Shown: piece after piece, positions 2,577-34,489 of the stretch | How positions within the stretch are numbered: position 1 is the stretch's first letter | Layout: every line of letters begins with the position of its first letter | Assembly (NCBI GenBank): GCA_041305185.1 | Contig: JBFYLW010000003.1 | Coordinates: 2,692 to 66,691 of the forward strand | Direction: 5' to 3' | DNA length: 64,000 nt | Origin: Nanobdellota archaeon | Lineage (GTDB): Archaea > Nanobdellota > Nanobdellia > Woesearchaeales > ARS49 | The notes under the pieces: model-generated | The model's database searches: none | Told to the model about the DNA's origin: nothing | The model's input: the letters and a program-made list of their open reading frames with translations, nothing else | Made by a program: the position numbers and the translations under genes

Positions 2577-3374
2577 ATGAAAAAAATATTTTTGGGATTG
2601 ACTTTGATTATTTTATTGCTTTCAGCTTGCACTCATTCGCAGGTATCTGGGAATGGTGTTGTGGAAGCGGGTAATGAGACTGTGGAAACTGCAGTGGGGC
2701 AGAATTCTACTCAAACAGCTGAAAAGCTTGCTGCAGATGAGAAGAAAGAGGCTGAAAGGGTTGAGGTAGAGAAAAAAGCAGAGGAGGAATTGATTAATCT
2801 GGCGAAGCTGAAGAAGGCAGTTAATGCTACTGTCGAGAAATGCAGCGGGTTTGAAGATGGGTATAACAGCACTTTCTGTTTTGCAGAGTATGGTGTGAAC
2901 TTGATGAAGCAGTATGGCAGGATTCAGGATTTGCATCCTGTTTACACTCTGTGTGAATATGCTGATGACAGTAATTTTTGTTATTTTTATGCTGCTGTTA
3001 TGCTTAATGGTCCGGGGTATTGCAATAAAGTCAAAGATAAGACTGGTTGTGAATTGATTTCTGATCCTTTGTTTTGCAACAGGTTGATTAATCCTAATCA
3101 GTGTCTTTTGGAAAGGGCAACGCTTATTCGTATTGTGAACAAGCCTGCGGCTCAGATGACTTGTGATATGATGAAAAGGTTTGATAAGTATCCTGATGCT
3201 GAAAAATACAATTGTGCTGAGATTGATTTTGGAGAAGTTTCTTATGATAAGGAGTCTTTCAAGGATCGTTTCTTTTTGATGCATTTTATGACTGCACTTA
3301 TGGATTTTGAACTCTATAATACTACCTTGGAGGATTATAATAGGAATAAGAGGGTGGACTATGAACAAGATTAA
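2577..3374 (+). CDS. Cys-rich secreted lipoprotein, family shared with 14326..14961 and 15429..16064
   Basis: Signal peptide + lipobox 'LLLSAC'; conserved motifs 'NSTFCFAEYG' and 'SNFCYFYAAV' shared with two paralogs; coiled-coil K/E-rich insert. Confidence 0.6.
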   Translation: MKKIFLGLTLIILLLSACTHSQVSGNGVVEAGNETVETAVGQNSTQTAEKLAADEKKEAERVEVEKKAEEELINLAKLKKAVNATVEKCSGFEDGYNSTFCFAEYGVNLMKQYGRIQDLHPVYTLCEYADDSNFCYFYAAVMLNGPGYCNKVKDKTGCELISDPLFCNRLINPNQCLLERATLIRIVNKPAAQMTCDMMKRFDKYPDAEKYNCAEIDFGEVSYDKESFKDRFFLMHFMTALMDFELYNTTLEDYNRNKRVDYEQD

Positions 3375-3579
3375 GATTATTGGAAGGCTGGTTTTGATTG
3401 CGTTGTCAATAATGTTTATTTCTTTTGTTATTGAGACGAACAGCGGCACTTTTTTTCATGTTTCTGCTGCTGGCGCTATTATTTTCTGGTCATTAATTGG
3501 CATTTGGCGGGATATCACTGGTGGCAAAAAGGCTTACCTGGTTTGGAAAGATGGAAGGCCGAAGCTGGATATGAGATGA
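3361..3579 (+). CDS. small two-TM membrane protein partnered with the Cys-rich lipoprotein
   Basis: Start ATG at 3361 overlaps upstream stop; 'MNKIKIIGRLVLIALSIMFISFVIE...AIIFWSLIGIWRD' paralogous to small ORF 16061..16225 ('MNKTKILIKLGLIGLVVVIMLFSVE...AAVFWLVIGVLRE'). Confidence 0.5.
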   Translation: MNKIKIIGRLVLIALSIMFISFVIETNSGTFFHVSAAGAIIFWSLIGIWRDITGGKKAYLVWKDGRPKLDMR

Positions 3580-4424
3580 ATTTGATGAAAGACTTGAATT
3601 ATTGCAGGTTAGTGACGCATGAGCCTTTGATAGTCAAAGGGCTGTCTTTGGAAGGTACTGCTGGTTTGAAAGAGAAGGTTCCTGCATTTCTTGGCGTGGG
3701 TATCAGCAGCAGGGATGTTTTGTCTTGCGGTCTTCCTGTTGATGTTTTGAGTATGGTCTTGATGAGTGAGCTTGTTGGTACTGAAAAATATGTTCTTGTG
3801 GCTGATGAGCATGCGAAATTCAATGGTTTTGATGAGGGTGTCGTCAAAAATGTTGCTTCTTTGTATTCAGGAGTGTTGTCGAGTGTGCTTGGGAGTCTTG
3901 GGCTGTCTGGTTGGAAGGTATTGCTTGGTTCAGATATTGGTCAAAGTGCGGATTACCAGAATATCTTGAAATCTGTTGATGAAAAAAATGGTTATGTGAA
4001 GAGAGAGCTTGCAGATATGGTTTGGTTTGCAGAACGCGGTGTTAAACTGAAAATTGGCTGGTCGAAAGATGAGGGTTGTGATTTTGGCGAGCTTTTTTTT
4101 GATAACAAGTTCAGGGAGCTTGACAGGGCTGAAATGTCTTTTCTGTACTTGAAATCCGGAAGGACCTTTAACCCCGATAAGCCTTTTTCAGCTCCGTATT
4201 TTTGTGATAATGCTGAAAATAGGGTTATGCTGTGTTCAGGGGAGGATGTGGGTTTGAAGATATCGTCTGCTCAAAAAAGGTTTGGGAAGAATAAAGTTTC
4301 TGGTTATCTTCGTTTTTTGAATGATTTGATGGATTTGTATGATTGCGTAATCAGGCCGGTAAAAGAACAGGCTTTGGAGAACAGGTTGCAATATGTTATT
4401 GACAGGTGCTGCCATGATATTTGA
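3576..4424 (+). CDS. hypothetical protein (start re-assigned to ATG 3576, ATGA overlap with upstream stop)
   Basis: Intact 282-aa ORF in operon; no recognisable motifs. Confidence 0.4.
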   Translation: MNLMKDLNYCRLVTHEPLIVKGLSLEGTAGLKEKVPAFLGVGISSRDVLSCGLPVDVLSMVLMSELVGTEKYVLVADEHAKFNGFDEGVVKNVASLYSGVLSSVLGSLGLSGWKVLLGSDIGQSADYQNILKSVDEKNGYVKRELADMVWFAERGVKLKIGWSKDEGCDFGELFFDNKFRELDRAEMSFLYLKSGRTFNPDKPFSAPYFCDNAENRVMLCSGEDVGLKISSAQKRFGKNKVSGYLRFLNDLMDLYDCVIRPVKEQALENRLQYVIDRCCHDI

Positions 4425-4448
4425 TAATTTTCAAGGAGGGGTAGGTAA

Positions 4449-5357
4449 ATGAAAAAATTGCTTGCAGCGCTGGTTTTAGGGGGGGTTTTGGGTTTTGTAC
4501 AGCCTGTTATCGCGCAGGAGGCTCCTAAGGAGAAGAGTGCTGTAGAAAGAGTGGGAGATGGTATTGGTGATTTGTTTGGCAGGGGTCTTGATTATATCAC
4601 TCGCAAATTAAGAGAAAGAGAGCTTGAGGGTGAGATTGAGAGCAAGTTTTCCTATAATCTTGATGATAAGAATCTTGAAGGGTTTTTAGCAAAGAAACGC
4701 TATGAAGTTTTTGAAAGTGCTGATGTGACTAATTTCACGGATAATAAAGCTGTTGCAGTGCTTGAATACGATTTTAGGAGTCCTGAGCCGGGCAGGTACA
4801 GGAATTTCAGGACCAGGATGCAGCGGGAGTTTTCATTGACTGATGGCTCGATTGATGCTGTTGTCAGCCAGGGTGAGGATTGGGGTGAGTTGTGTGGCAG
4901 GAAAGTGAGCGAAGCTGTTTTGAATGATTTTTTGCTGCTTAACTCTGCTGTTGCAGATAGGTGGGATAAGAAGGTGCAGGACTGTGCTGCTCAGAACAAG
5001 GAGCATGTTTTTGATTATCAGATTGTGTTTATTGCGCATAACGGTGATGTTTACAAGCGTGATAGTGCTGAAAAGTCTAAAGTGGAATTGCCGGCTAAAA
5101 AATCTCAGGCAGGTATTAGTCTGACTGTTAAGGATAAGTTTGGGAATGTTCTTCAGAATCAGAGGTTTGTTGAGGAATACCAAAATCAGGGTTCCTGGCA
5201 GTATGAGCGCGAGTTGTTCAACAGGAGTATGAGTGGTTTTGATTTTACTGAAGAAAATCATTGGAATGAGAGGGACTTTTTGCAGCAGCTTGGCGCTTCT
5301 GCAGATAGTGCTTTTCGTGAAGGAGTCAAATACATAAAAAGTTTGTTTCAAGATTAG
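4449..5357 (+). CDS. secreted hypothetical protein
   Basis: N-terminal signal peptide 'MKKLLAALVLGGVLGFVQPVIAQEAP'; GGAGG-like SD 8 nt upstream. Confidence 0.5.
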   Translation: MKKLLAALVLGGVLGFVQPVIAQEAPKEKSAVERVGDGIGDLFGRGLDYITRKLRERELEGEIESKFSYNLDDKNLEGFLAKKRYEVFESADVTNFTDNKAVAVLEYDFRSPEPGRYRNFRTRMQREFSLTDGSIDAVVSQGEDWGELCGRKVSEAVLNDFLLLNSAVADRWDKKVQDCAAQNKEHVFDYQIVFIAHNGDVYKRDSAEKSKVELPAKKSQAGISLTVKDKFGNVLQNQRFVEEYQNQGSWQYERELFNRSMSGFDFTEENHWNERDFLQQLGASADSAFREGVKYIKSLFQD

Positions 5358-5419: not shown

Positions 5420-6595
5420 ATGGCAGATGAAAATGATGGTAATGAACGGGCGGACCTTAAATGGTGGGGTATGACTGAGAGGGAGCTTAAGCTCAAAGAA
5501 AAGTACAATATTATTCATCCGGTGTTGCGTAGGAAAGAGCTTTTGGATTACGTAAGGGAACATTCCGGCAGGGATTTGTTATCAAAACCTCATGCGTCGC
5601 CTGTTTCAAATGCTCCTGACATGAATCAGGTTCAGAACTATGCTGGAAAAATGATTGTTCTTCAGCACGAGTTTGGCAGGACTATGCGTCTTATTAATAA
5701 TGACACAGTATATAATCAGATGAGGGAATATGTCTTGCAGAAGTTTTTCAGAAGCATTCCTAAGTCTCCAGAAGAGATTCTTGAGCTTCAACTTAACAAC
5801 ATTCATGATTTGAATGAGGTTTATGCTGATTTCATTAATCATTCTATTTGTTTATTGGATGGCATTTCGGATTCTATGGATGGCCGGCTTGATGAGATTG
5901 CGCTTGGTGAGGCAATGATGATTGAGGCTATTGTTGGCGGTTCTAAATTGTCCAAGATCTATGAGCAAGAGAGACAAAAACTTGCAGGTATGAAAAGAGA
6001 GCATTCTGTTTCTAATACGTTGGATGAGAGGATGAATGGTAGTATTACTTTTGTTGAAAATCTGAATAGACGATTGGGAATTAGGGACCAGGCAAGTTTG
6101 TGCAAGAATACATATCGTGATGTGGTAGATGCTAAAAGTGCTGAAATTTTGAATAGGGAGCATGTGAATGATATGATGAGAGACTTGAAGTTATTCGCGC
6201 GTGTGTTTGAAATTGGTTACTTTATGAATTTTCACAACGCAGATACTTTAAGGAAAAGTCGGCGTCTTGAAAATCTGATAAGGGAAACGAAGGATTTTGT
6301 GATTCATCAGAATAAGAACCTCAAGATTGCAGGAACATTGATGACACAGTTCGCTCAAATGAATGAAACTGCAGGATCCATATACGGTTTCCTTATCTCT
6401 GTGGCGGAGGGCGTATATAAGATAAGTAAAGATCCTGCTTTCTTGTTTGATCAAAAAAAGAATTTTCTGGGCATGAATTCTAGACAGATTGCAGAGTATT
6501 CCCTGGAGGGTTGTTTTAATGATAATTTTTCCGCTGACACAAATCGTTACAGGCAAATGGCTGTGGAGCTTCAGACCCAGATGGTGAGGCAATAA
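5420..6595 (+). CDS. hypothetical alpha-helical protein
   Basis: 391-aa intact ORF, SD-like 'aggagg' upstream; no motif recognised. Confidence 0.4.
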   Translation: MADENDGNERADLKWWGMTERELKLKEKYNIIHPVLRRKELLDYVREHSGRDLLSKPHASPVSNAPDMNQVQNYAGKMIVLQHEFGRTMRLINNDTVYNQMREYVLQKFFRSIPKSPEEILELQLNNIHDLNEVYADFINHSICLLDGISDSMDGRLDEIALGEAMMIEAIVGGSKLSKIYEQERQKLAGMKREHSVSNTLDERMNGSITFVENLNRRLGIRDQASLCKNTYRDVVDAKSAEILNREHVNDMMRDLKLFARVFEIGYFMNFHNADTLRKSRRLENLIRETKDFVIHQNKNLKIAGTLMTQFAQMNETAGSIYGFLISVAEGVYKISKDPAFLFDQKKNFLGMNSRQIAEYSLEGCFNDNFSADTNRYRQMAVELQTQMVRQ

Positions 6596-7341
6596 TGAGC
6601 GGTGCAGATAGGGGTTTTGGTGCTTTTCAGAGGGCTCTTGAGGAACTGATTAGAGTTCCTTCCTCGAAAAGCCATAAATCCCTGCTCCTGTCTCATGATT
6701 CTGCTTCTGACTACTTGAAGGATTTTTATTCTGGTTTTTTGGAGGATTATTGTGATGACAACAAGAAACTGTTGTCGCATAAGGTGGATTTTTTCAATTA
6801 TGGCGCATCTTTGGTGAAGAAAAAGCAGGCTTATGATGAGAGTCTTGGTTTGAAAGAAAGGTTTTGGGCTTTTGAAAAGCTTGCCCATGTCAGGGGTTTT
6901 ATTCTTCAGAGGAATTTTGCGGGTATTGAGGGAAAAAAAGAGTTTTATCAGGGACGGATATATGAACAAAATGGTATTCTTAGTATGTATCAAGATATTT
7001 TTGGTTATCTTAAGGATGCTGTTATGGGTTTTGAAAAATTGTATTTTCCTCTTTGTGCGTTGAAAAATGATGTGTCTATTGCTGATTTTGTGTCTAACTC
7101 AGAAGGAGAGTTCAAGAATTCAGCGCAAACTGCCTTAAAATCCTCTTTATTTTCATTTTATCTTCAGTGGTGTAATTATGCTGAAGGTCTTAACAGCAGA
7201 GTTGTTAATTATGACCGTTTGAATAGGAGATTCCGCTGCCTTAATGATTTTATGGCTGATTTGAGCGACGTGTGTTATAATCAGGATGCTGTTATCAAGG
7301 AAAACGCAGAGTTGTTTTTTGAAAATGCAAACCCCTCTTGA
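6595..7341 (+). CDS. hypothetical protein
   Basis: Start overlaps upstream stop (TAATG); 248 aa. Confidence 0.4.
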   Translation: MSGADRGFGAFQRALEELIRVPSSKSHKSLLLSHDSASDYLKDFYSGFLEDYCDDNKKLLSHKVDFFNYGASLVKKKQAYDESLGLKERFWAFEKLAHVRGFILQRNFAGIEGKKEFYQGRIYEQNGILSMYQDIFGYLKDAVMGFEKLYFPLCALKNDVSIADFVSNSEGEFKNSAQTALKSSLFSFYLQWCNYAEGLNSRVVNYDRLNRRFRCLNDFMADLSDVCYNQDAVIKENAELFFENANPS

Positions 7342-7921
7342 GAATAGGCTGGATTGTTTCACTACTGTACTGCCTGGTGAAGAGCATAATATGTATGAGT
7401 TAGTCAGCAATATTGTTGAATACTCGGGCGATATTGTTTTCGGATTGTACAATCATTCTCGGGAGGAATTGTTGCCTTTATATCGGCGATTGGGCAATTG
7501 CTTGTTGACTTTGGCGCACGAATTTAGATATATGTCAGATGCCTGTAGGGAGTATGTCAAAATTGGTTTTTCTGATGAATCTGCTCCGAATTTGTTGAAG
7601 TATCTGACAGGCAATATGAGGAAGAAAGGTCTGGATTGGTTTGGTGATAGGAAAAAGTTTTCTCAAATCAAAAAAATGCTTAAAAAAAATGATTCGGATA
7701 AGACCGGATTGTTGACTTTGGCAGATGATTATTTCAATGAATGTCATCTTAATTCATCGTTAATGCTTCAGAAGGTTGAGCGCTTTTATCGTTTGCCTGC
7801 AGTTATACAGGAGGGGTTTGTTTTCTATGATAAGATGAAGCGAAGTTTGTTTTGGGATAAAGATTGCAAGAAATTCTTGAGAAGAATTATTGGTGAGGAT
7901 TATGACAAAAGATTGGAGTGA
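7286..7921 (+). CDS. hypothetical protein (true start probably internal, 7325 or 7391)
   Basis: ORF overlaps upstream gene; internal Met candidates. Confidence 0.35.
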   Translation: MLLSRKTQSCFLKMQTPLENRLDCFTTVLPGEEHNMYELVSNIVEYSGDIVFGLYNHSREELLPLYRRLGNCLLTLAHEFRYMSDACREYVKIGFSDESAPNLLKYLTGNMRKKGLDWFGDRKKFSQIKKMLKKNDSDKTGLLTLADDYFNECHLNSSLMLQKVERFYRLPAVIQEGFVFYDKMKRSLFWDKDCKKFLRRIIGEDYDKRLE

Positions 7922-8648
7922 TCATTTTTCTCAAGATAATTATAAAGATAGAAATCTGGATAATTACCTGAATTTTGATAAAATTAAAAAAAATCCGTTT
8001 AATAAGCTTAAACTAATGCTTGCTGCTGGCGCTCTTTTAGCGCTGGGTCCCTGTGTTGCTTTTTGCTGCAGCGGTTCTTCCAAGGATTACTTCAGGAAAT
8101 CAGACCTGGATGTGAATAAGATTCATGGAAAGTATGAATTGACTCTTACTGAAAAGAATGAGCCGAATCCTTTTGTTATTAATGATGATTTGGTTGATAT
8201 AATCAGGAAAGAGACAAAAAATTGTGAAACCGAGCTGGATAAAGCAAAGGCAATCTTTTATTGGATGAGAAAAAATATCAGTTATGACTTAACAAAATAT
8301 TTTACACGTACTAACGGCTTTGTTAGAAATCATAAGTTATTTGGAGATGAGTCTGGCTATAGAAACAGCACTGAAGTTATAGACGATGAAGAGGGAATAT
8401 GTGGAGAATCTGCTTTCTTGTATGTTACAATGGCTCGCTGCGTGGGGTTGGATTCTAATATTGTTTTTGTTAATAGAGATTGTTATTCAGATAGTGTCAA
8501 TCATGGTTGTGCTGTTGTGCATATTAGAGGGAAGAGAATTCTTGTTGATCCTGCGTACGATACTTTCGATATTAAGCATAAAGAATACCGGATCCAGTCT
8601 GATGAGGAAATTATCAGGAATTACCGTCATTGGAGGAAAAATGAATGA
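7890..8648 (+). CDS. transglutaminase-like cysteine-protease-fold protein, membrane/lipid anchored
   Basis: N-terminal hydrophobic segment with Cys cluster 'LAAGALLALGPCVAFCCSGSS'; Cys-His-Asp triad context 'GICGESAFLYVTMARCVG' ... 'HGCAVVHIRG' ... 'ILVDPAYD' typical of transglutaminase core. Confidence 0.65.
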   Translation: MVRIMTKDWSDHFSQDNYKDRNLDNYLNFDKIKKNPFNKLKLMLAAGALLALGPCVAFCCSGSSKDYFRKSDLDVNKIHGKYELTLTEKNEPNPFVINDDLVDIIRKETKNCETELDKAKAIFYWMRKNISYDLTKYFTRTNGFVRNHKLFGDESGYRNSTEVIDDEEGICGESAFLYVTMARCVGLDSNIVFVNRDCYSDSVNHGCAVVHIRGKRILVDPAYDTFDIKHKEYRIQSDEEIIRNYRHWRKNE

Positions 8649-9958
8649 GCTTGGAGCAGGGTTTGGATGAATTGAAAATTTATGGGAGGCCACGGATAAG
8701 CTGGTGGCTGAAGAAGCAAAAGAAGAAAATATTAGGTACAGCATTTTCAGTTGCTGCGCTTGCTTGTTCTCTTTACGGCGGGTTGGTGTTTTATCAGCAT
8801 CAGAAAGAAAAAGCAGCAGAGAAGATGTACCAGGCTAACAATATTGAAGAGATTAAGCAGAGTAATAAAATAATGACTGAAGAGCTTGAGGTATATAAGC
8901 GGAAATATGATGGTCCTGAAGGATTGGATAACTTGATTTTTACCCAGCAAAGAAAACTCGCCGAGTTTGAGAAACGATTGCAAACTGAAGTGTTTCCAAT
9001 AAGTTTTAAAGAGGTGCATAGAAAAAGGTTGGCAAATTACCCATTGAAAATATTATTAATTGATGATTCCTTTTATATGCCTTCTGACAAAAACCTTCTT
9101 GGATTCGATATTAAAGAAATATATAAAGATCTTCCAACTGCTCTTTTATTTACGTATGGAATTATCAATTTTAATGAATCGACTGTGGTTTACCATGAAA
9201 ATGAAATGAATAAATTAAAAACAGTCGTGATAGCGCCAGGATTAGGAAAAAAAATATTGCATGAAACTGAATCTTGTAGCGGTTATAGAATATCTTTAGA
9301 ATGTTACCATAACAGAATTGCTTTAAAATATGAAAATTTAAATGGGAAAGATATTCGTCGAACTTTTTTTATTGAAGGAGATCAGATCCGTGCGCAAGAT
9401 GGTGATGCGGATTTTTCTACATATAAAGGCATGAGATATGATATTTCGTGGGGTAATCTGCATAAGAAATCAGAAAATGAGGAACTTTGGACAATAGGGA
9501 GCAATATTAATGAATATTTTCTTGTCAATAATCAGGCATTTATTCGTTCTGATAATACTTTATTTGCACATAACATATTCACTGGAAAGGAGATGTGGCG
9601 TTTTTCTTATAACACCAAAACCAAAGGCACACCGTTATGCGAGGATGTCCGGGTATATGTCGGCGCAGAAGATAATCATCTTTATTGTTTAGATTCAAAC
9701 ACTGGTAATTTGGTTTGGAAGTCTCAGACGAATGACAAGGTTAGGGAGCGTCCTTCTGTGGATAATGGTCGTGTTTATTTTGGTTCGCTGGACTCTCATA
9801 TTTACGTTTTGGACTCGAGAAATGGCAGGCGTTTGTGGATGCATGAGCTTGACAGCCCGATTAGTTCTCCTCCGATGGTTAAGGATGATATGCTTTACTT
9901 GGCTACGACTAATGGTAATTTGTATGCTTTTAAGAAGAAGAAGAGTGATAAGAAATGA
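8645..9958 (+). CDS. membrane-anchored PQQ-like beta-propeller repeat protein
   Basis: N-terminal anchor module 'MSLEQGLDELKIYGRPRISWWLKK'+TM; C-terminal repeats 'HLYCLDSNTGNLVWK', 'HIYVLDSRNGRRLWM', 'GNLYAF' typical of PQQ/BamB-like propellers. Confidence 0.6.
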   Translation: MSLEQGLDELKIYGRPRISWWLKKQKKKILGTAFSVAALACSLYGGLVFYQHQKEKAAEKMYQANNIEEIKQSNKIMTEELEVYKRKYDGPEGLDNLIFTQQRKLAEFEKRLQTEVFPISFKEVHRKRLANYPLKILLIDDSFYMPSDKNLLGFDIKEIYKDLPTALLFTYGIINFNESTVVYHENEMNKLKTVVIAPGLGKKILHETESCSGYRISLECYHNRIALKYENLNGKDIRRTFFIEGDQIRAQDGDADFSTYKGMRYDISWGNLHKKSENEELWTIGSNINEYFLVNNQAFIRSDNTLFAHNIFTGKEMWRFSYNTKTKGTPLCEDVRVYVGAEDNHLYCLDSNTGNLVWKSQTNDKVRERPSVDNGRVYFGSLDSHIYVLDSRNGRRLWMHELDSPISSPPMVKDDMLYLATTNGNLYAFKKKKSDKK

Positions 9959-11139
9959 GTCTGGATGATTTGAAGATAAAAGGAAGAACTAAATCCTTGT
10001 GGTGGTTGAAAGACAAGTTTAGAAAGTACAAGGCTCCGGTAGTTGCGACTGTGCTTGCTGGCGCTTTGGGCTTGTATGGGTTGGTAAGCAGTTACAGGGC
10101 TGCTGTATATAAGAACGGGCTTTTTGAAAATTATAATTCTGTTAAAGTTATGATTGAGGAAAAAAGGTATGATGCTGCATTGGATTTGCTGACTATATTG
10201 AAAGAAGAGCTTAAGCAAGCAGATGATGCGAGATTGGTGGGTTTAAGCAAAAATGTTGATAGGCTTGAAAATAGAGTATGTGATGGTAAAATTGGTTTTG
10301 AAGAGGATTTTGAAAAATTAAAAAATTTCTTTGAAGAATATCAAAAGAACAGTGCACGGGCTATTGAGGGGTTTGACTCTTTAGAATCAAGATTCGAGAA
10401 TTATGCGAAAAGTTATCAGGAAGATAATCAGGAATTCCAATGTTTGAAAAAAGAATTTGAAGAATTTAAAAAAAGAATCTGCGAGAGTCAGATACGTTTA
10501 GATAGATTGGAAACTGATTTGATTGAAACCAGGCAAAAAAGAGAGTCTAGGTTGGATTTAGGTCAAACATTTTATTCGGACGATTTTTCCAAAGATAAAG
10601 GTTGGTTGTTGGGAATTATAGACAGCAGTTTGGGAAAGGATGCGTGTAGTTATAACATTTCCAATGGAACTCTTACTTTGACTGCTGGCTGGTCTTCGTG
10701 TCCTCTTGCATTAGTGGACAAGTCTGTTAAAAATGCAATTATTGAGGTTGATGCTCAATTGGTCAGTTCTTCTTATAAGTCAGAGTTGGTTTGTGCAGGG
10801 ATTTGCGTTAGGGTTCCTGAAGGTGATTTGAGGAATATGCGCGATATGTGTGGTTTTAACATTCGTTCTGGTGTTGGTGAAAAGAATACTTTGTTCAGCA
10901 GGAATGGTTCCAAGAGTATGGGTAAGAGCACATTTGCTCCAAATATTGAGATAGGGAAGTGGTACCATCTTAAAATGGACGTGTATGACACTCATGTTCA
11001 ATGTTATATTGATGATAACCTTATTTTTGATGAGGTTCTGCCAGAAGGGAGTATTCCTGAAAAAGGCAGGGTGGGTTTTTACTGTAATGGTTCTGAGATT
11101 AGCAGGTATGACAATTTTAAACTTATTTTGAGGAACTGA
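9955..11139 (+). CDS. membrane-anchored coiled-coil protein with C-terminal concanavalin/LamG-like (DUF1080-type) domain
   Basis: Shares N-terminal module 'MSLDDLKIKGRTKSLWWLKDK'+TM with flanking genes; C-terminus '...KGRVGFYCNGSEISRYDNFKLIL' resembles end of 3-keto-disaccharide-hydrolase/DUF1080 lectin fold. Confidence 0.45.
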   Translation: MSLDDLKIKGRTKSLWWLKDKFRKYKAPVVATVLAGALGLYGLVSSYRAAVYKNGLFENYNSVKVMIEEKRYDAALDLLTILKEELKQADDARLVGLSKNVDRLENRVCDGKIGFEEDFEKLKNFFEEYQKNSARAIEGFDSLESRFENYAKSYQEDNQEFQCLKKEFEEFKKRICESQIRLDRLETDLIETRQKRESRLDLGQTFYSDDFSKDKGWLLGIIDSSLGKDACSYNISNGTLTLTAGWSSCPLALVDKSVKNAIIEVDAQLVSSSYKSELVCAGICVRVPEGDLRNMRDMCGFNIRSGVGEKNTLFSRNGSKSMGKSTFAPNIEIGKWYHLKMDVYDTHVQCYIDDNLIFDEVLPEGSIPEKGRVGFYCNGSEISRYDNFKLILRN

Positions 11140-11140
11140 A

Positions 11141-12073
11141 ATGAGCTTGAAGCAGGATTTGCATGAATTGAAAATTTATGGGAGGCCGCGAATAAGCTGG
11201 TGGCTGAAAAAGCATTCAAAAAACCTATTAAAGACAGCTGCTTCAATTTCTCTGCTTGCTTGTGCTCTTTACGTTTCAATGGGGTTTTATTATTCTAAAA
11301 AAGCAGTATCGGAAAAAATCTATGCTTTGGAGCAGATGGTTAGGGAAAATATAGACAACACTGTGCTGAAGGAGGAGGGCTTGATTGCTTTTGTTTCTAA
11401 CAGGGATGGTAATGATGAGATTTATTTGATGAACTACAATGGAAAAAACCAAAAAAGACTGACTTTCAACACTACCTTTGATGGCGACCCTGCTATCTCC
11501 CCTGACAAGAAGACGATTGCTTATGCTTCCTGCGCTAATGGAAACTTGGATATTTTTCTTATGGATATGTACGGGTTAGCTCGTCAGCAGATTACCAAGG
11601 ATAGTTCGAACGAAAAGAATCCTGAATGGTCGCCTTGCGGTTCATATCTTCTTTTTGAAAGTGACAGAGGAAAGGGATGGGGAATTGATAAGATTGATCT
11701 TGCAACAAAAAATGTCAGTGAATTCTTAGATGGTGGTACAAATGATATTAATCCTAAAATATCGCCCAATGGAGTGTATCTTGCTTATAATATTGGCAGT
11801 TGTTCTATAGTGTGTAATTGCAGAACTAGGATTACAAAAGATTGTGAATCATCAACGAATATTTTCAACCCTTACTGGTCAAAAGATAGTTCTTCTTGTA
11901 ATTTTACAGATGATCCTAATGTGATTATGGTGTATACGCCAATAGGAGATAGGACTGTTTTTAACAAAAAAGTGAATGGAAATTGGCAGATATTTATCAA
12001 AGACAATGGAAATGGCAGTGAAACCCAGCTGACAAACACTGATTCAAATAATTATATGCCGGATTGCAGGTGA
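11141..12073 (+). CDS. membrane-anchored TolB-like (PD40) beta-propeller repeat protein
   Basis: N-terminal module 'MSLKQDLHELKIYGRPRISWWLKK'+TM; repeats 'DGNDEIYLMNYNGKNQKRLTFNTTFDGDPAISPDKKTIAY', 'NPEWSPCGSYLLFESDRG', 'NPKISPNGVYLAY' typical PD40/TolB blades. Confidence 0.6.
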   Translation: MSLKQDLHELKIYGRPRISWWLKKHSKNLLKTAASISLLACALYVSMGFYYSKKAVSEKIYALEQMVRENIDNTVLKEEGLIAFVSNRDGNDEIYLMNYNGKNQKRLTFNTTFDGDPAISPDKKTIAYASCANGNLDIFLMDMYGLARQQITKDSSNEKNPEWSPCGSYLLFESDRGKGWGIDKIDLATKNVSEFLDGGTNDINPKISPNGVYLAYNIGSCSIVCNCRTRITKDCESSTNIFNPYWSKDSSSCNFTDDPNVIMVYTPIGDRTVFNKKVNGNWQIFIKDNGNGSETQLTNTDSNNYMPDCR

Positions 12074-14017: not shown

Positions 14018-14227
14018 TTACTTCATGTGTCTGACTTCTTTGAACAGTTTGTATGCGTACAGCCAGACTGCTACGGTGATTCCCACCATTAATGCTGTTA
14101 ACAATATGTGTTGGAATCCGCCGTATGGTTTTTGCATCATCTCTGTTCCCATTGCTCTTCCGTATTCTCCTGTCTGTGCTAGTGCAGAGCCTGCTGCCAG
14201 TAGACTTGCTAGTAGAATCTTCTTCAT
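14018..14227 (-). CDS. small secreted/membrane protein
   Basis: Signal-like N-terminus 'MKKILLASLLAAGSALA' and C-terminal TM helix; 69 aa. Confidence 0.3.
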   Translation of the reverse strand: MKKILLASLLAAGSALAQTGEYGRAMGTEMMQKPYGGFQHILLTALMVGITVAVWLYAYKLFKEVRHMK

Positions 14228-14325
14228 ATTATCACCTCTTTAGGTCATATTTTGTCTTATTTTTATTTAAATGTTTGGAAACATTTTGGGAATGTTTATA
14301 TTATTGGTGTGTTGCCGTGATTTGT

Positions 14326-14961
14326 ATGAATGTGAAAATTATTTTGCTGTTGTTTTTGTTGGCTTCCTGTAGTCCGCCTGATCCTGATGCAGGATTGTCG
14401 ATGGGTCAGATAGCTGAAAGGCAGATTATTGAGACCAGGTCTAATTGTTCTGTTCACGTTGATGATTATAATTCAACTTTATGTTTTGCAAATTATTTGA
14501 TGAATTTCAGGAAATCTGCGCTTGAGTCTGATCGTTCTTATCCTGATTATATGATTGATACTTTTTGTTCGGCTGCGAAAGTGCGTGACTTGTGCTTTTT
14601 TTATGTTGCTGCGACCATTAAAAAAAGTGAGCTTTGTAAGCATGTCGTTGCCGATAAAAGAATTGAATGCCGCATGTTGTCTGATGATTATGTCTGTTAT
14701 TCTTTTAAGAATAAATTTGACTGTATGGTGAATAAGGCGATTTTTATGGAATTTGTTGACCATTCAAAATCTGTTGAAATCCGCAGGTATTTGGCTGAGC
14801 AGAACCAGTCTGTTGAAAAGCTTGAAGAAAACTGTGAGGCGCTCTCAGCTCATTTGAAAGACGATAATCTGTCTTATGAAGAAAGATTTTTGAAAGCATA
14901 TTTGCTATTACGGTATTATGATATTGATGTGGATTTTATTAATGCAAGTCAGCTTGTTTGA
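14326..14961 (+). CDS. Cys-rich secreted lipoprotein, paralog of 2577..3374 and 15429..16064
   Basis: Start re-assigned to ATG 14326 ('MNVKIILLLFLLASCSPP' lipobox); motifs 'NSTLCFANY', 'DLCFFYVAAT' shared with paralogs; the 14092 start would run through an antisense gene. Confidence 0.55.
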   Translation: MNVKIILLLFLLASCSPPDPDAGLSMGQIAERQIIETRSNCSVHVDDYNSTLCFANYLMNFRKSALESDRSYPDYMIDTFCSAAKVRDLCFFYVAATIKKSELCKHVVADKRIECRMLSDDYVCYSFKNKFDCMVNKAIFMEFVDHSKSVEIRRYLAEQNQSVEKLEENCEALSAHLKDDNLSYEERFLKAYLLLRYYDIDVDFINASQLV

Positions 14962-21330: not shown

Positions 21331-21798
21331 TCATCTGTTTTGTCCTATGATGTATTTTTGTGCTGCGGTGTACATTGCTGTTTCGATTGTTCTTCCGAAC
21401 TCTCTTACAAATGATTGTGGGTTTGGTATCGAGGTTCCATATCTTCTTCTGTGTTCTGATGCGAAATTTTTTCCTGCCTCGTTGACTGCATCTATTATTG
21501 TGCCTGACATGCTTGATGGAAGCACGTCGCTTAGGAAATCCGCTACCCCTTGTATTGTTCCTTTTGCTTTTTCAAGATAAAGTGTTTTGTGTACGTTTAG
21601 TTTTTCATATTCTGCTCTTTGTTCTTTGACTTCTTCAAGTCCGTCTTTTTTGAATAGTATTTTGCACCATCCCCTTATGCCTGTGGATTCTCTTTGCAGC
21701 CTGTCTGTTTCATCGACATGTTCTGCAACTTCTCCTACTTCTGAGTAGAATTTGTTCATTGCTTGAATTAATATTGTGTCGAATTCTTCAGGTGTCAT
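21331..21798 (-). CDS. hypothetical protein, tandem paralog of 21800..22261
   Basis: Shared motifs 'FDxILxxxMNxFYS', 'DExxRLQRESTGxRGWxKILFKxDGxEEVxxQRAEx', 'KAKGxxxGxxDF', 'RxYGxSxPxPxxFV'. Confidence 0.4.
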   Translation of the reverse strand: MTPEEFDTILIQAMNKFYSEVGEVAEHVDETDRLQRESTGIRGWCKILFKKDGLEEVKEQRAEYEKLNVHKTLYLEKAKGTIQGVADFLSDVLPSSMSGTIIDAVNEAGKNFASEHRRRYGTSIPNPQSFVREFGRTIETAMYTAAQKYIIGQNR

Positions 21799-21799
21799 T

Positions 21800-22261
21800 T
21801 TATCCTCCAGTGAGATATTTTTGTGATGCTTTATACATTTCTGTTTCTATTGCTTTGCCCAGTCCGCTTACGAATGCTTTTGGATCAGGGACTGAAAATC
21901 CATATTTTCTTTCATGGTTTGATATGTATTTGTTTACGGCTTTTGATGCTGCTTCTAATACTGCGTCTGCCATGTCTGGGGGCAAGGAGTCTCTTATGAA
22001 GTCTTTTATTCCGTATACTGCTCCTTTTGCTTTTCCTAAAAAGTATTCCATCCTTGTGGTGATTTGTTCAAGTTCTGCTCGTTGCTGGGTGACTTCTTCC
22101 ATACCGTCGTTCTTGAATAGGATTTTCACCCAGCCTCTAAGTCCTGTTGATTCTCTTTGCAGTCTGTTTGCCTCATCTATATCTTCTGATGCGTTGTATA
22201 GGTCTGAGTAGAAATTATTCATTGATGTCAGAAGGATTTCGTCAAAATTTTCAAGTGCCAT
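21800..22261 (-). CDS. hypothetical protein, tandem paralog of 21331..21798
   Basis: See paralog; 1-nt spacing. Confidence 0.4.
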   Translation of the reverse strand: MALENFDEILLTSMNNFYSDLYNASEDIDEANRLQRESTGLRGWVKILFKNDGMEEVTQQRAELEQITTRMEYFLGKAKGAVYGIKDFIRDSLPPDMADAVLEAASKAVNKYISNHERKYGFSVPDPKAFVSGLGKAIETEMYKASQKYLTGG

Positions 22262-30550: not shown

Positions 30551-31427
30551 CGTTTATTTTTTCCAGTATCTTTTTGATTTCGCTGAAATTGTCTTTTTTG
30601 CCTGTGTTTGGTATGATGTGTAGGTTTTCTTCTGGTATTGCTGCTCTTATTGCTGGCAGTTCTTTTTCGTCGTAGTTGAATAGTATGATATGAGGTATGC
30701 CGTATTCGTACGCTCCTACTACTTCGTCATAATCGTGTCCTATGAATGCTACTTCTTCTTTTTGGTATCCGTTTTTTTGGAGCACTGTATCAAAGAATTT
30801 TGGTGCTGGTTTTTTGCATTTTACATCTGCATAAGATACTACTTCCTTGACCCCTCTTGTTATTCCCATTCTTGGGAGTGATTCGTATAGTTTTTTCCCT
30901 GGTTTTATTGCGTCTGTGACTATGATAAAATCTACCAGTCCGTCAAGGCTTTCTATTGTTTCTTTGACTCCTGGGAAGAGTTCTCTTTTTCTTTTTGAGT
31001 TTTCAGCGATTATTTCTTCGAATTGTACAAAGTTTTCAAGACCGTATTCCTGAAACAATGCCCTGTATGCGTCTTTTGCCGTGTCAGTGCCTGCATTCGC
31101 CTGGTATAAAACCCCTGGGTTGCGCGTCTGGATTTTGTATTTTTCCATAATTTTCAGCATTTCTTTTTCAGCTTTATCGCCTGCTAATTTTTTGTCAATG
31201 CTGGTTAATTTCAGGTAATCCTGTATTTTTTTGAAGTCTTCCTGGGTTTCCACTGGCAGGTTTTTATACGAAAAATTTATGACGTATTCTTTCATTCTTT
31301 CAAGGTCTTTTGCTATTTTGCCCTTGTTTATGCCTGTTTCTTTGTGTATGTAATTTACACCATAATTCCTGTCTTCATTGTCGTCAAACAGTATGTTTCC
31401 TCCGTCCGATAGTATTGCTTTTATCAT
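30534..31427 (-). CDS. HAD-superfamily hydrolase-like protein (non-canonical motif I)
   Basis: Motif II 'FIIVTDA', motif III 'KCKKPAPKFF', motif IV 'VAFIGHDYDEVVGAYEYG'; motif I 'AILSDGGNIL' deviates from DxDxT. Confidence 0.45.
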   Translation of the reverse strand: MIKAILSDGGNILFDDNEDRNYGVNYIHKETGINKGKIAKDLERMKEYVINFSYKNLPVETQEDFKKIQDYLKLTSIDKKLAGDKAEKEMLKIMEKYKIQTRNPGVLYQANAGTDTAKDAYRALFQEYGLENFVQFEEIIAENSKRKRELFPGVKETIESLDGLVDFIIVTDAIKPGKKLYESLPRMGITRGVKEVVSYADVKCKKPAPKFFDTVLQKNGYQKEEVAFIGHDYDEVVGAYEYGIPHIILFNYDEKELPAIRAAIPEENLHIIPNTGKKDNFSEIKKILEKINAKSQG

Positions 31428-34400
31428 TTTTCGTATTTTTCTGCGAATTCTGTTATTGCATCTGATATTCTTTTTATTTTCTGGTTGAATTCATTCATGT
31501 TGATGCTTGATACGCCTGTGGCTTCCATTATCTGGACTGGTTCTCTGGTTCTTTCAAGATATTTTTCGTTTATTTCTTGTATTTTTTCAATATCTTTGCA
31601 GTCTTTGAGCTCTTCACTTCTTTCCAGCATGATTCTGTCGTATTGTATGTTTGCTTCAAAGTAAATTGCTGCCTTTTTTATTGTCGGCAAAAATTCTCTG
31701 ATTGCTGTTGTTTCTATCGGGTATTCCTGCTGGAACAGCATATTTTTGGAGTATTTTTCAAAGGTTTGGTATGTGAAATTCAGCAATTCGTATCTTTCTT
31801 GTATTTGTCCTGCTTGATTTTTTATTGATTTATCAAGTGCTTTATCAAGTGACTCGCTTAATTGAAGAGAGAGATCTTCGATTTCTCCAACGGTTGATTC
31901 TAACAGGCCTATTGTTTCTTCCATTACTTTTAAGTTTTGATTTTCGCGTATCAAAAAGTTCTTTCCTTTTCTTTCTGTGTCATAACTGCGCAGCGTGCTG
32001 AGTGCGCTTATGGCGCGCTGGCTGAGGTTTTTTCTTGCGAAGTAGTGCCATGCTGTTTCTGCAAGGGTTCCAGTGTCGCTTAGGTAGTATTTGTACTTGA
32101 AGAAATTTCTTGAGTCTGTGCTTATTACTTCTTTTTTTGTTCCGAACACTGAATCTAAATCTGCGAGTGAGTCTGCGCATATCATTGCTTTTTCTACTTC
32201 ATCTTCTCCGTTTGTCATGGCTGCTATTGCTGTTGCCAAATCTTTGTGCTTGTCAAGCATGCTTGCTGCATAGCTTGCAAGGTATCCGACAAAGAATTCA
32301 TCTTGTTTAAGCAGTTTTGTGTCGTGTCCTAGTGAGCTTACGTAATTGCGCAGGTTATCATGCAATTTGCTTTTGAACAGGCTTGTGAATATTAGTGTGT
32401 CGAGTGTTCCTGCTGGTAGTGCTTTTATTTTTTCATATTTTACCACTAAACTATTGTTGTGTGTTTCAATTGCCTGTTGGAGCAGCATTGTGGTTATTGG
32501 ATCTGCGCTGTATGTTTTGAAGAAGCTTAGCAAATCTTCTGGCGTTTGTATTTTTGCCTTTGCCATGCTTTTTAATATTTCGTCTTTTTTTCCGAAAAAT
32601 TCTATTTCAAATTGTCTTGCTTCTTCGAGGTGTATGATTGTTTGGGGTGAGAAAATTCCTGCTCTTAGATTGTCTTGCAGGCGTTTCATGTTTTCCTCTA
32701 TCATTATCTGAAGAGCTGGGTGTGCGCAGTTTGTGCCTAGAAGTCTTATGTACTCTTTTGTTATTTTCTCTCTTTGTTCTAATGGAAGTATGTTTTCTGT
32801 AAGCAGGTTTTTGTGCGGGTTTTCTATTTTTGCCAATTGTTCATCTATGCTTTTGTATATTCCGTCTCTTCTCTGTTCGTAATTTTCAATTATTTTTTCT
32901 GCTTCTTTGCTGTCAGGGTCTTCTGAATTCCATGACATTCGATAGGTGTCTCCTTTTGTTTTCACTATTTGTTCTATCTCTTCTGGTCTGCTGATGAGTA
33001 CTTCTTTGAGTTCATCGTGGTTGAGATTCTTTTCTTTTGCTAATATGTGGTCGGTTGCCTGCCATTTATTTATTAATGGAAATCCGTAGTTAGTGGTTAG
33101 ATAGCCAAGTAATGCAGTTCCGAAAGTGACTGCTGTTAATGCTGCTATGCCTATTCTTTCCCATCTTTTCCGTACTCTTTTGTTTGCTGCCTGGTTGAAT
33201 AGGAATGCTCTTTCGTTTTGTTCTTCTTCTTTGTTTTCGTCATTGGCTCTTAGTTCTCCTATGAGCAGGTCCGGGTGTACTGTTTTTTCATAGTTTGCTC
33301 TTGTTTCCTTGTCCCACCTGTTGAGTCTGTTTTGTTTTCCGAATTCTTCCATTCTTTCTTCAAGTTTTGTTTCGCCCATTTCGTTTAATGTGTCAAGGGC
33401 TCTTGTGTAGACAAGGTCTTTCAGATTGTTGTAGAAGTCTGATAAGCGTGTATCTTTGCAGCTTTTTGCTCCTGCTGCTGCTATTGCGGTGAATCTTAAG
33501 TTTTCAAGTGCGTCTGTTATCAGGTACTTTCTTGTGAATCCTTCAAGGGAGTCTGTGTATTTTTGTGTGTCTTCTCCTTGTGAATGGTTCTGTATTGCTT
33601 CGTGCAGTTTTTTGACTGAAACATCTCTTGCGTCTTTTGCGTTTACGCAGTTGTGCTCGTAGACTGACATGTTTAGTCTGTATAGGTCTTTTTGGATTGC
33701 TCCTATTGATGCATCATCCCAGTCTATGATTTTTGGCGTGGATGGTGCTGATTTGATTTTTACGACGTTTTTTCTGTGGAGGTCATTGTGGACTATGCTT
33801 TTCGGCTGTGTGTCAAGTTCTGCTCCTAGTGCTGCGAACCTTTCTACAAGATCTTCAAATCCTTCTTTGTGCTTCCAGGCATCTTCTGTTTCGTCTTTGT
33901 TTTTTGTTTTTGCGTCAAAGAATTTTTGTTTGAAATAATTGGTGTAATTATCTTCTTTCAAAAGTGCTTTTATTTTTTCGTCTGGTTTTATTGTGGAGTA
34001 TCCTCCCATTAAATCTATTATTCCTGCTTTTTGGGGTATTGCCATAGCTCCTTTTTCGTCTAGTGCGACGTCTAGCAGTTCTGTGCATCTGAATGCTTCG
34101 TCTTTTGCTATTCTTTCGAATATGTAGCCTGCTGGTGCTCCTGAGAATTGGTGCGCTTTCAGGAAGTCTTCGACTGCTGAGCCTTTTTCGAGCTTGTCTG
34201 AGTTTTTGTTCAGGAATTTTCCGAATGCGTTCAGCGTGTAGCCGTTATCGAATCTGGCTGTGAGTATCATGCTGAGCCCGTCGCTTACGTTCGCGTTGTA
34301 TTCTTCTTCTATTTTGAATCTGTCATTTTCTATAAGTGTGCTTAGTTCTTTTGCCTTTTCTAGGGGGACCTCTGTAGGGCTTGTTGTTCGTACTTTCTGC

Positions 34401-34489
34401 AATAGTCCTTTTTTTAGAAAATCGTCTATAAACTTATTGTATCTTCTCCTTCCAAGGTTCTTCCTTAATGAAACTATCTTCTGCATCAT
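31424..34489 (-). CDS. 1021-aa protein with N-terminal aminoglycoside-phosphotransferase/protein-kinase-like domain, one TM helix and long helical C-terminal region
   Basis: Catalytic loop 'IVHNDLHRKNVV' (HxDxxxxN) and 'IIDWDDASIG' (DFG-equivalent); TM 'IGIAALTAVTFGTALLGYL'. Confidence 0.5.
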   Translation of the reverse strand: MMQKIVSLRKNLGRRRYNKFIDDFLKKGLLQKVRTTSPTEVPLEKAKELSTLIENDRFKIEEEYNANVSDGLSMILTARFDNGYTLNAFGKFLNKNSDKLEKGSAVEDFLKAHQFSGAPAGYIFERIAKDEAFRCTELLDVALDEKGAMAIPQKAGIIDLMGGYSTIKPDEKIKALLKEDNYTNYFKQKFFDAKTKNKDETEDAWKHKEGFEDLVERFAALGAELDTQPKSIVHNDLHRKNVVKIKSAPSTPKIIDWDDASIGAIQKDLYRLNMSVYEHNCVNAKDARDVSVKKLHEAIQNHSQGEDTQKYTDSLEGFTRKYLITDALENLRFTAIAAAGAKSCKDTRLSDFYNNLKDLVYTRALDTLNEMGETKLEERMEEFGKQNRLNRWDKETRANYEKTVHPDLLIGELRANDENKEEEQNERAFLFNQAANKRVRKRWERIGIAALTAVTFGTALLGYLTTNYGFPLINKWQATDHILAKEKNLNHDELKEVLISRPEEIEQIVKTKGDTYRMSWNSEDPDSKEAEKIIENYEQRRDGIYKSIDEQLAKIENPHKNLLTENILPLEQREKITKEYIRLLGTNCAHPALQIMIEENMKRLQDNLRAGIFSPQTIIHLEEARQFEIEFFGKKDEILKSMAKAKIQTPEDLLSFFKTYSADPITTMLLQQAIETHNNSLVVKYEKIKALPAGTLDTLIFTSLFKSKLHDNLRNYVSSLGHDTKLLKQDEFFVGYLASYAASMLDKHKDLATAIAAMTNGEDEVEKAMICADSLADLDSVFGTKKEVISTDSRNFFKYKYYLSDTGTLAETAWHYFARKNLSQRAISALSTLRSYDTERKGKNFLIRENQNLKVMEETIGLLESTVGEIEDLSLQLSESLDKALDKSIKNQAGQIQERYELLNFTYQTFEKYSKNMLFQQEYPIETTAIREFLPTIKKAAIYFEANIQYDRIMLERSEELKDCKDIEKIQEINEKYLERTREPVQIMEATGVSSINMNEFNQKIKRISDAITEFAEKYEK

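Follow-up and report, generated by a model that had tools for sequence, protein, structure and literature searches.

Some families of paralogous surface proteins share a 5′ leader that is homogenized by gene conversion, and the "virulence signal region" of Mycoplasma (PF09610) is one example. Short motifs that precede the hydrophobic core of other surface proteins, including YSIRK and KxYKxGKxW, are represented by models in the NCBIfam library. YSIRK motifs are conserved in the n-region and target secretion to the septum (PMC5962339). In DPANN archaea, LamG and beta-propeller surface proteins have been proposed to serve as host-interaction factors (PMC5498576). The locus described here lies in a 64-kb stretch of contig JBFYLW010000003.1 from a Nanobdellota archaeon (hereafter the window). 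It comprises three consecutive genes whose products begin with a common module, a short cytoplasmic tail followed by one transmembrane (TM) helix, and then carry three different binding domains. Codon identity shows that DNA was exchanged between the 5′ ends of the first and third of these genes, apparently in one event of ~150 nucleotides (nt).

DNA exchange between two module-bearing genes

The open reading frames (ORFs), N-termini, and single TM helices that an earlier note on this sequence had reported are as claimed. The three genes, which encode the PQQ, coiled-coil, and PD40 proteins, respectively, and their module copies are listed below with lengths in amino acids (aa).

8645-9958 (+): gene 1, 437 aa, N-terminus MSLEQGLDELKIYGRPRISWWLKK; tail ("handle") aa 1-25, TM helix aa 29-50, helical stalk to ~aa 114, PQQ/BamB-like beta-propeller; predicted type II membrane protein
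9955-11139 (+): gene 2, 394 aa, N-terminus MSLDDLKIKGRTKSLWWLKDK; tail aa 1-21, TM helix aa 26-47, conserved juxtamembrane helical segment, coiled-coil stalk, C-terminal LamG/DUF1080-like jelly-roll
11141-12073 (+): gene 3, 310 aa, N-terminus MSLKQDLHELKIYGRPRISWWLKK; tail, TM helix aa 29-47, short helix, PD40/TolB-like beta-propeller
8645-8794 (+): module copy A (cytoplasmic tail plus TM helix) of gene 1, exchange-tract partner
9955-10095 (+): module copy B of gene 2, diverged; tail 60-65% identical in amino acids to copies A and C, without codon-identity excess
11141-11290 (+): module copy C (tail plus TM helix) of gene 3, the other exchange-tract partner

The tail common to the three products is basic, ~25 aa long, and built around the core I-x-G-R-x-[RK]-x-x-W-W-L-K, after which comes the TM helix. 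Sites of the form WW[LIVMF][KR] occur only three times in the six-frame translation of the window, each time at one of these N-termini. The coupling of the genes by ATGA overlaps, as originally proposed, holds at the junctions of gene 1 with the upstream transglutaminase (TGase)-like gene and with gene 2, but not between genes 2 and 3, which are separated by a 1-nt spacer (TGAaATG).

Genes 1 and 3 agree at 68 of the 75 nt that follow from their start codons inclusive (90.7%), and identity is 77% over 164 nt. Among 276 pairs of gene 5′ ends in the window, the next best pair matches at 36 of 75 positions and the median is 22, so the reported value of ~90% stands well clear of the background. The repeat is the second-longest direct repeat in the window. 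When the two genes are compared in fixed register, each 15-nt interval contains 13-15 identities through nt 75 and 9-12 through ~nt 150, and identity falls to background upstream of the ATG and beyond ~+150. The repeat therefore corresponds exactly to the cytoplasmic tail plus the TM helix.

Protein conservation alone would predict far fewer identical codons than are found. In the tail, 18 of the 21 residues shared by genes 1 and 3 use the same codon, compared with an expected 9.4-10.1 (P = 5e-6 with window-wide codon usage, 1e-4 with operon-only usage). In the TM part, the same codon is used at 11 of 13 identical residues, where 5.0 are expected (P = 6e-4). None of the other five within-genome paralogue pairs, from the window and from a related operon described below (L001), has such an excess. 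Because codon identity exceeds what protein conservation predicts, the two genes must have exchanged DNA.

Comparison with the related operon gives the same picture. The tails of the window PQQ and PD40 proteins have an identity of 0.88 to each other, whereas identity to the respective L001 orthologue is 0.54 for the PQQ protein, 0.38 for the PD40 protein, and 0.40 for the coiled-coil protein. Toward its outer end the TM helix regains the orthologue signal, with GLVFYQ in the window PQQ protein and GLVHYQ in that of L001. The earlier proposal of gene conversion or recombination is thus supported by the codon excess, the sharp limits of the tract, and the greater similarity of paralogues than of orthologues. 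Its qualification as "recent" is not.

The age of the exchange was examined by the method of Nei and Gojobori. Codons 1-25 of genes 1 and 3 give a nonsynonymous divergence (dN) of 0.067 and a synonymous divergence (dS) of 0.276 (dN/dS ~0.24), and codons 26-50 give 0.446 and 0.338 (dN/dS ~1.3). The following 50 codons are saturated. The dS values of the two halves are alike, which fits a single event, and at ~0.3 they speak against recency. The same operon is present in six independent assemblies (three JGI metagenomes, the NCBI metagenome-assembled genome [MAG] GCA_964387435.1, and two Logan runs). Over 8645-12073, five of these match the window at 3428 of 3429 positions, and the sixth (L094) matches at 3033 of 3034 over the part that it covers. 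With only 1 nt of difference, the assemblies sample the same population and are uninformative on timing. The exchange tracts do not differ among them, so tract polymorphism gives no sign of a recent event, and the exchange is old relative to population diversity. On these small numbers, the tail is shown to have been under apparent purifying selection since the exchange, and the TM helix to have been free to change while remaining hydrophobic.

Each of the three proteins has one hydrophobic stretch of 19-22 residues preceded by 7-9 K/R residues, and Kyte-Doolittle windows exceed 1.5 solely at aa 26-50. From charge and hydropathy, the products are predicted to be type II single-pass signal-anchor proteins oriented N-in/C-out, in agreement with the anchor role first suggested. 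A consistent signal-peptidase site was not found, and in the AlphaFold2 (AF2) model of gene 1 the hydrophobic stretch runs on as one helix into the stalk. For both of these reasons the segment looks like an uncleaved anchor.

Distribution and ancestry of the module

The breadth of the module's distribution was assessed by an exhaustive HMMER search, run without a word index, of 1.84 billion cluster representatives with a profile of four module sequences. Apart from one spurious repeat protein, which matched the hydrophobic part alone, the search returned three proteins of the window (PQQ, PD40, and coiled-coil) and two of L001 (PQQ and PD40). The earlier note had suggested a search for further copies, and none exist outside this operon in the window or among these representatives. 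A hidden Markov model (HMM) built from six sequences was run on 1.06 Mb of fetched loci, translated in six frames, and gave matches in the window and in L001/L002 alone. No Pfam family matches the module significantly; PF09610 matches that of gene 1 below its cut-off (E = 0.0066, 17.1 bits, cut-off 22.4).

Scans that started from other parts of the operon did not extend this distribution. A metagenome scan with the propeller C-terminus returned generic PQQ propellers alone, at 43% identity or less over short stretches, and none with the module. A scan of genome contigs with a TGase alignment returned the L001 genome again (L002) and two additional loci, L003 and L004, whose TGase homologues occur in unrelated contexts without the module. 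A scan of viral contigs gave no match. By these searches the module is confined to this operon in two genomes. It is lineage-specific, neither a generic signal-anchor nor a mobile cassette, and the concern that such N-termini might be found on many unrelated proteins does not apply to so specific an element.

The sole full-length relative of gene 1 is protein P0003 (35% identity over 84% of the query by BLASTP; 38-39% in global alignment). It is encoded on a 249-kb contig labeled Nanoarchaeota archaeon by NCBI, for which the GTDB representative is Candidatus Woesearchaeota archaeon CSMAG_2085 (L001/L002). L001 is syntenic with the window over ~14 genes, in the order Methyltransf_33, a divergent double-AsnC regulator, a Cys-rich lipoprotein, a small two-TM protein, a secreted 302-aa protein, three soluble orphans (393, 245, and 239 aa in L001), a TM-anchored TGase-like protein, the three module genes, and an Lrp/AsnC regulator at the end. 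Identity between orthologues is 53% for the TGase-like protein, 35-39% for the PQQ protein, 33% for the coiled-coil protein, 27% for the PD40 protein, and 24-26% for the orphans. The neighbors of the trio in the window are the following.

2577-5357 (+): start of the cluster; Cys-rich lipoprotein-like (265 aa), 72-aa two-TM, 282-aa, and secreted 302-aa proteins
5420-7921 (+): three co-conserved orphans of 391, 248, and ~198 aa, without TM helix or signal peptide
7890-8648 (+): TGase-like protein (Cys-His-Asp) with its own N-terminal TM helix, ATGA-coupled to gene 1; the best conserved operon gene, 53% identical to L001
12078-12530 (+): Lrp/AsnC-type regulator that begins 4 nt downstream of gene 3, with a conserved counterpart closing the L001 operon

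The module copies of L001 are MNLEGRVGFEKVRIRGRVKLGWWLKNK, MNLENRLGLGNMKISGRAKLSSWLKWN, and the degenerate MNLENITGKMKKYWLVKEK, each with a TM helix after it. Since all three L001 genes carry the module, the combinations of tail and ectodomain are ancestral, and no recent shuffling onto a new domain has occurred. Comparison of the two operons thus shows that each of the three ectodomain types already bore the module in the ancestor shared by both genomes. The proposal that a common handle is being moved onto different extracellular binding domains is contradicted by this result, and no other carrier of the module exists among the 1.84 billion representatives. The locus reveals no new domain-shuffling mechanism. 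Concerted evolution within L001, where all three genes begin MNLE, was also considered and was rejected because the codon test gives no DNA-level signal.

Gene order differs between the operons, being TGase-PD40-PQQ-coiled-coil in L001 and TGase-PQQ-coiled-coil-PD40 in the window. The L001 coiled-coil protein has no LamG domain, and stalk repeats make the L001 PQQ protein longer by ~170 residues. The stalk of window gene 2 (aa 117-200) resembles that of the non-orthologous P0003 (aa 95-270; L001 10001-11815) with a BLASTP E value of 8e-6. The repeat common to these two stalks, D-F-x-x-L-E-S-R-F-E-x-Y-x-K...D-N-x-E-F, is missing from the product of gene 1 in the window. It therefore seems that stalk segments have been transferred from one paralogue to another, and the trio has a mosaic history.

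In the lineage of the window, an exchange of ~150 nt between the PQQ and PD40 genes overwrote one module copy with the other. This could have happened by gene conversion, or by the crossover of a tandem duplication and deletion, which would have left a hybrid module and shifted the PD40 gene from first to last place in the trio. The duplication/deletion model would also explain the difference in gene order.

Several observations were made on the flanking genes of the two operons. The 72-aa two-TM protein (window 3361-3579; L001 4433-4651) starts MNKIKIIGRLV in the window and MNKGKIIGKLV in L001; its K-I-x-G-[RK] directly before a TM helix recalls the core of the tail, and it went undetected by the module HMM. 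The Cys-rich lipoprotein-like paralogues (window 2577-3374 and 14092-14961; L001 3804-4436) share C-x-x-x-[ED]-D-x-[YF]-N-S-[TF]-[FL]-C-F-A, and of the two in the window one heads the operon and the other lies 2 kb downstream of it. In the TGase-like protein, which matches PF01841 with 39.5 bits (cut-off 23), residues C171, H205, and D220 are identical in the two operons and form a putative catalytic triad, assigned by position.

At 1.1 kb from the L001 operon is a gene for a 466-aa protein (L001:13975-15375, -) with precomputed Pfam matches to Sigma70 r2, r3, and r4. Finding a sigma factor of the bacterial type in an archaeal MAG points to either horizontal transfer or mis-binning. The window has no counterpart at the corresponding position downstream of its operon. 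For this reason, and because the tail is too short to be an anti-sigma domain, an anti-sigma-like role of the tail was rejected.

Ectodomains and the proposed role of the tail

The domain assignments made in the earlier note are largely borne out by profile searches. Gene 1 matches PQQ_2 (PF13360) with 83.9 bits (cut-off 27.6; E = 1.8e-23), as is characteristic of a PQQ-like beta-propeller, and gene 3 matches PD40 with 62.7 bits (cut-off 20.9; E = 2.7e-17). The match of gene 2 to DUF1080, a 3-keto-disaccharide hydrolase domain (PF06439), falls just under threshold (23.8 bits, cut-off 26.8, E = 5e-5) and spans positions 27-186 of the 187 in the profile. An AF2 model of gene 1, built from an alignment of 66 sequences, has aa 1-17 disordered, a single unbroken helix over aa 20-88 (TM plus stalk), and a propeller in which the predicted local distance difference test (pLDDT) score is >85 from ~aa 260 and >90 from ~aa 290. 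The best PDB matches of this model in Foldseek are eight-bladed designer propellers, BamB, and an archaeal PQQ-like protein, with E values of 1e-11 to 1e-13 for the eight-bladed propellers and BamB.

Two functional assignments that these folds might invite were rejected. Gene 1 is not BamB: TIGR03300 scores 72.6 bits against a cut-off of 285, a TM anchor takes the place of a lipobox, and the host is an archaeon. Gene 3 matches the TolB propeller model (TIGR02800) with E = 1e-43, in the propeller part alone (model positions 249-382), and its 149.6 bits fall far short of the equivalog cut-off of 343. No TolQ/R or Pal family was found in Pfam and NCBIfam scans of the neighboring genes, and gene 3 is likewise not the TolB of a Tol-Pal system.

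The tail core, in the form I-x-G-[RK]-x-[RK]-x-x-W-[WL]-[LV]-K, is kept on all six proteins of the two divergent genomes. This persistence, together with the contrast in dN/dS between the tail and the TM helix, argues that the tail has a sequence-specific role. The likeliest is that of a common cytoplasmic docking or assembly motif. In the AF2 model of gene 1 the tail is unstructured when alone, as expected of a short docking peptide.

In the explanation that we prefer, the three genes are the membrane-anchored output of one conserved cell-envelope operon in a Woesearchaeota-like (DPANN) archaeon. Each product consists of a short basic cytoplasmic tail, a TM helix, a helical stalk, and an extracellular binding domain, namely an eight-bladed PQQ-like propeller, a LamG-like lectin, or a PD40 propeller. 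The tail, located at the cytoplasmic face of the membrane, could join the three ectodomains to a single partner in the cytoplasm, or link them with each other via the TM and stalk helices. The resulting surface complex would bind external ligands, for example host or matrix glycans. Candidate partners, suggested by their position and conservation, are the three co-conserved soluble orphans encoded just upstream, which gave nothing significant in Pfam, NCBIfam, PADLOC, and PDB sequence searches. A word search with the 391-aa orphan found itself alone, and it has no similarity to a 363-aa protein of L003. Taken as a whole, this explanation (a cell-envelope operon with an ancestral module, one exchange, and a tail that serves for docking or assembly) is in our view probably correct, if only by a little.

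Several points weigh against it. The link between tail and partner is an argument from sequence, and topology or contact with lipids could be reason enough for a juxtamembrane segment that is basic and rich in Trp to be conserved. Each dN/dS value is calculated from 25 codons. The system is present in just two genomes, which are divergent, polarizing the order of the rearrangement events needs a third genome, and the degenerate tail of the L001 coiled-coil protein (ITGKMKKYWLVKEK) falls below the detection threshold of the global search. Finally, a single-sequence AF2 model of the 391-aa orphan is unusable (all-helical, pLDDT 40).

The docking hypothesis can be extended to an undescribed trans-membrane apparatus restricted to Woesearchaeota. 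The three orphans, as helical proteins of the cytoplasm, would bind the identical tails of the PQQ, LamG, and PD40 proteins. Together with the TGase-like protein as an ectoenzyme, they would link the binding of a host or ligand outside the cell to a scaffold or signal inside it, and the Lrp/AsnC regulator would be the output. The exchange would then keep the tails matched to one partner. We regard this extension as doubtful.

A different possibility is that the module is a targeting or insertion signal that routes the three proteins to one site or pathway, in the manner of YSIRK/GXXS or KxYKxGKxW. The motif directly precedes a hydrophobic segment in several different surface proteins that one operon encodes, as such a signal would; the septal routing by YSIRK is a precedent, and the sub-threshold match of the gene 1 module to PF09610 is to an element of the same sort. 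However, a pathway signal is expected on more than three proteins per genome, and the global search found no others. The full proteins gave no match to a signal-peptide family in the NCBIfam scan (E ≤ 0.01), and the segment of 19-22 aa looks uncleaved, continuing as one helix into the stalk. Targeting of this type is less likely because the motif occurs on three proteins only and because the segment appears to be uncleaved. We therefore consider it unlikely, although it deserves consideration.

Two rejected candidates belong to this class of signals. A Tat signal peptide does not fit, as the basic residues of G-R-x-[RK] are not adjacent, 4-8 further polar residues precede the hydrophobic stretch, and no Tat model appeared in the NCBIfam scan. 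An archaeal class III (type IV pilin-like) signal does not fit either; inspection of the six sequences shows n-regions of 25-33 aa and no [KRDE][GA] before the helix.

It is also conceivable, and to our minds about as improbable as targeting, that the module has no specific function. The proteins would simply have inherited positive-inside signal-anchors, and the near-identity would have arisen neutrally when adjacent repeats underwent gene conversion. Some of the data are compatible with this idea: stalk-type repeats occur in non-orthologues (E 8e-6), pointing to common descent or mosaicism, the DNA-level signal is found in one pair alone, and aa 1-17 have no structure in the AF2 model. Neutrality does not readily account for the survival of the tail core on all six proteins when other operon proteins have diverged to 25-53% identity, or for a dN/dS of ~0.24 in the tail against ~1.3 in the adjoining TM helix. 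Moreover, generic anchors would not yield a profile specific to this family among 1.84e9 proteins.

Selection on mRNA or DNA, for instance on a regulatory site or on a 5′ structure that couples translation, could in principle have kept the nucleotide identity. A similar hairpin is possible in both 5′ regions, and a GAGGAA Shine-Dalgarno-like box is present upstream of both genes. However, the fold z-scores of -1.1 and -1.9 are not significant, gene 2 has no such fold (z = +0.5), no Rfam family matches in the window, and the L001 paralogues have no codon excess. Codon identity also continues across the TM helix, as far as ~150 nt from the start of the ORF. This explanation is very improbable. 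An assembly or binning artefact, a chimeric join at the repeat, is barely credible: the sequence is metagenome-assembled and repeats can mislead assemblers, but the same arrangement is found in six independent assemblies from different samples, and a 75-nt repeat with 91% identity has neither the length nor the similarity needed to collapse.

Should the tail prove to be a genuine docking motif, it would offer a small, testable entry point to the organization of surface proteins in an uncultured DPANN archaeon, presumed to be host-contact machinery. It would also provide a first role for an operon made mostly of orphan genes. The exchange itself is a clean, small case of partial-gene DNA exchange between adjacent paralogues, followed by unlike selection on the two halves of the tract.

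Other features of the window and comparison with known systems

Elsewhere in the window, several features were observed that lie outside the operon. The longest direct repeat (198 nt, 71% identity) is formed by tandem paralogous genes for proteins of 155 and 153 aa (21331-22261, -). A 1021-aa protein (31424-34489, -) has an APH-type kinase fold and a sub-threshold match to TCAD9, a ternary-complex-associated domain; domains of this type occur in NTP-dependent conflict systems. Within 55228-63308 (-), large orphan ORFs (1150, 663, and 404 aa) flank a 530-aa E1-like protein that has ThiF-family matches at both ends and a weak NCBIfam match to the anti-phage 6A-MBL cap2 model. The L003 cluster, with its two TGase homologues, also contains an E1-like protein (ThiF-family motifs by eye), a long protein with a LysM-like end, and further orphans, which hints that such TGase proteins are linked to ubiquitin-like conjugation or conflict systems.

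Cumulative GC skew climbs almost monotonically across nearly the whole window, to ~5.0, with GC skew reaching +0.36, and AT skew is below zero over almost the entire length, regardless of gene strand. This pattern suggests that the 64 kb belong to a single replichore whose strand asymmetry is unusually strong. Neither tRNA genes nor Rfam matches were found anywhere in the window.

The module most closely resembles several described systems in part. Like the YSIRK/GXXS and KxYKxGKxW elements of Gram-positive bacteria, it places a short basic and aromatic motif right before a hydrophobic core, on the cytoplasmic or membrane side of proteins with unrelated ectodomains (PMC5962339). Its sequence is different, and neither a YSIRK nor a KxYKxGKxW motif is present in the three window sequences. 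Unlike those elements, it leads into an apparently uncleaved TM anchor that continues as a stalk helix, and it is found on three genes of one archaeal operon rather than forming a genome-wide class.

The ectodomain folds match those of BamB/PQQ-like and TolB/PD40 propellers, and the layout of gene 2, with an N-terminal TM helix, a long helix, and a C-terminal globular domain, is like that of TolA. In contrast to the BamB and TolB systems, the host is an archaeon without an outer membrane, and the proteins are TM-anchored, neither lipoproteins nor periplasmic. The DPANN surface proteins with LamG and propeller domains agree in domain repertoire and type of organism. Those proteins, however, are described as secreted or S-layer proteins with PKD/CARDB domains, and no shared cytoplasmic tail or operon of this kind is reported for them (PMC5498576).

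The families with homogenized leaders offer a further parallel. There too, an N-terminal signal or anchor is common to paralogues whose bodies differ, and the copies are homogenized at the DNA level. The present case differs in having three copies in one operon, with pairings of leader and body that have been stable over a long time, and the trio shows no sign of switching of the antigenic-variation type. The locus is thus a known sort of thing, a set of paralogous surface proteins that share a leader or anchor and whose copies are homogenized, here with a very narrow distribution.

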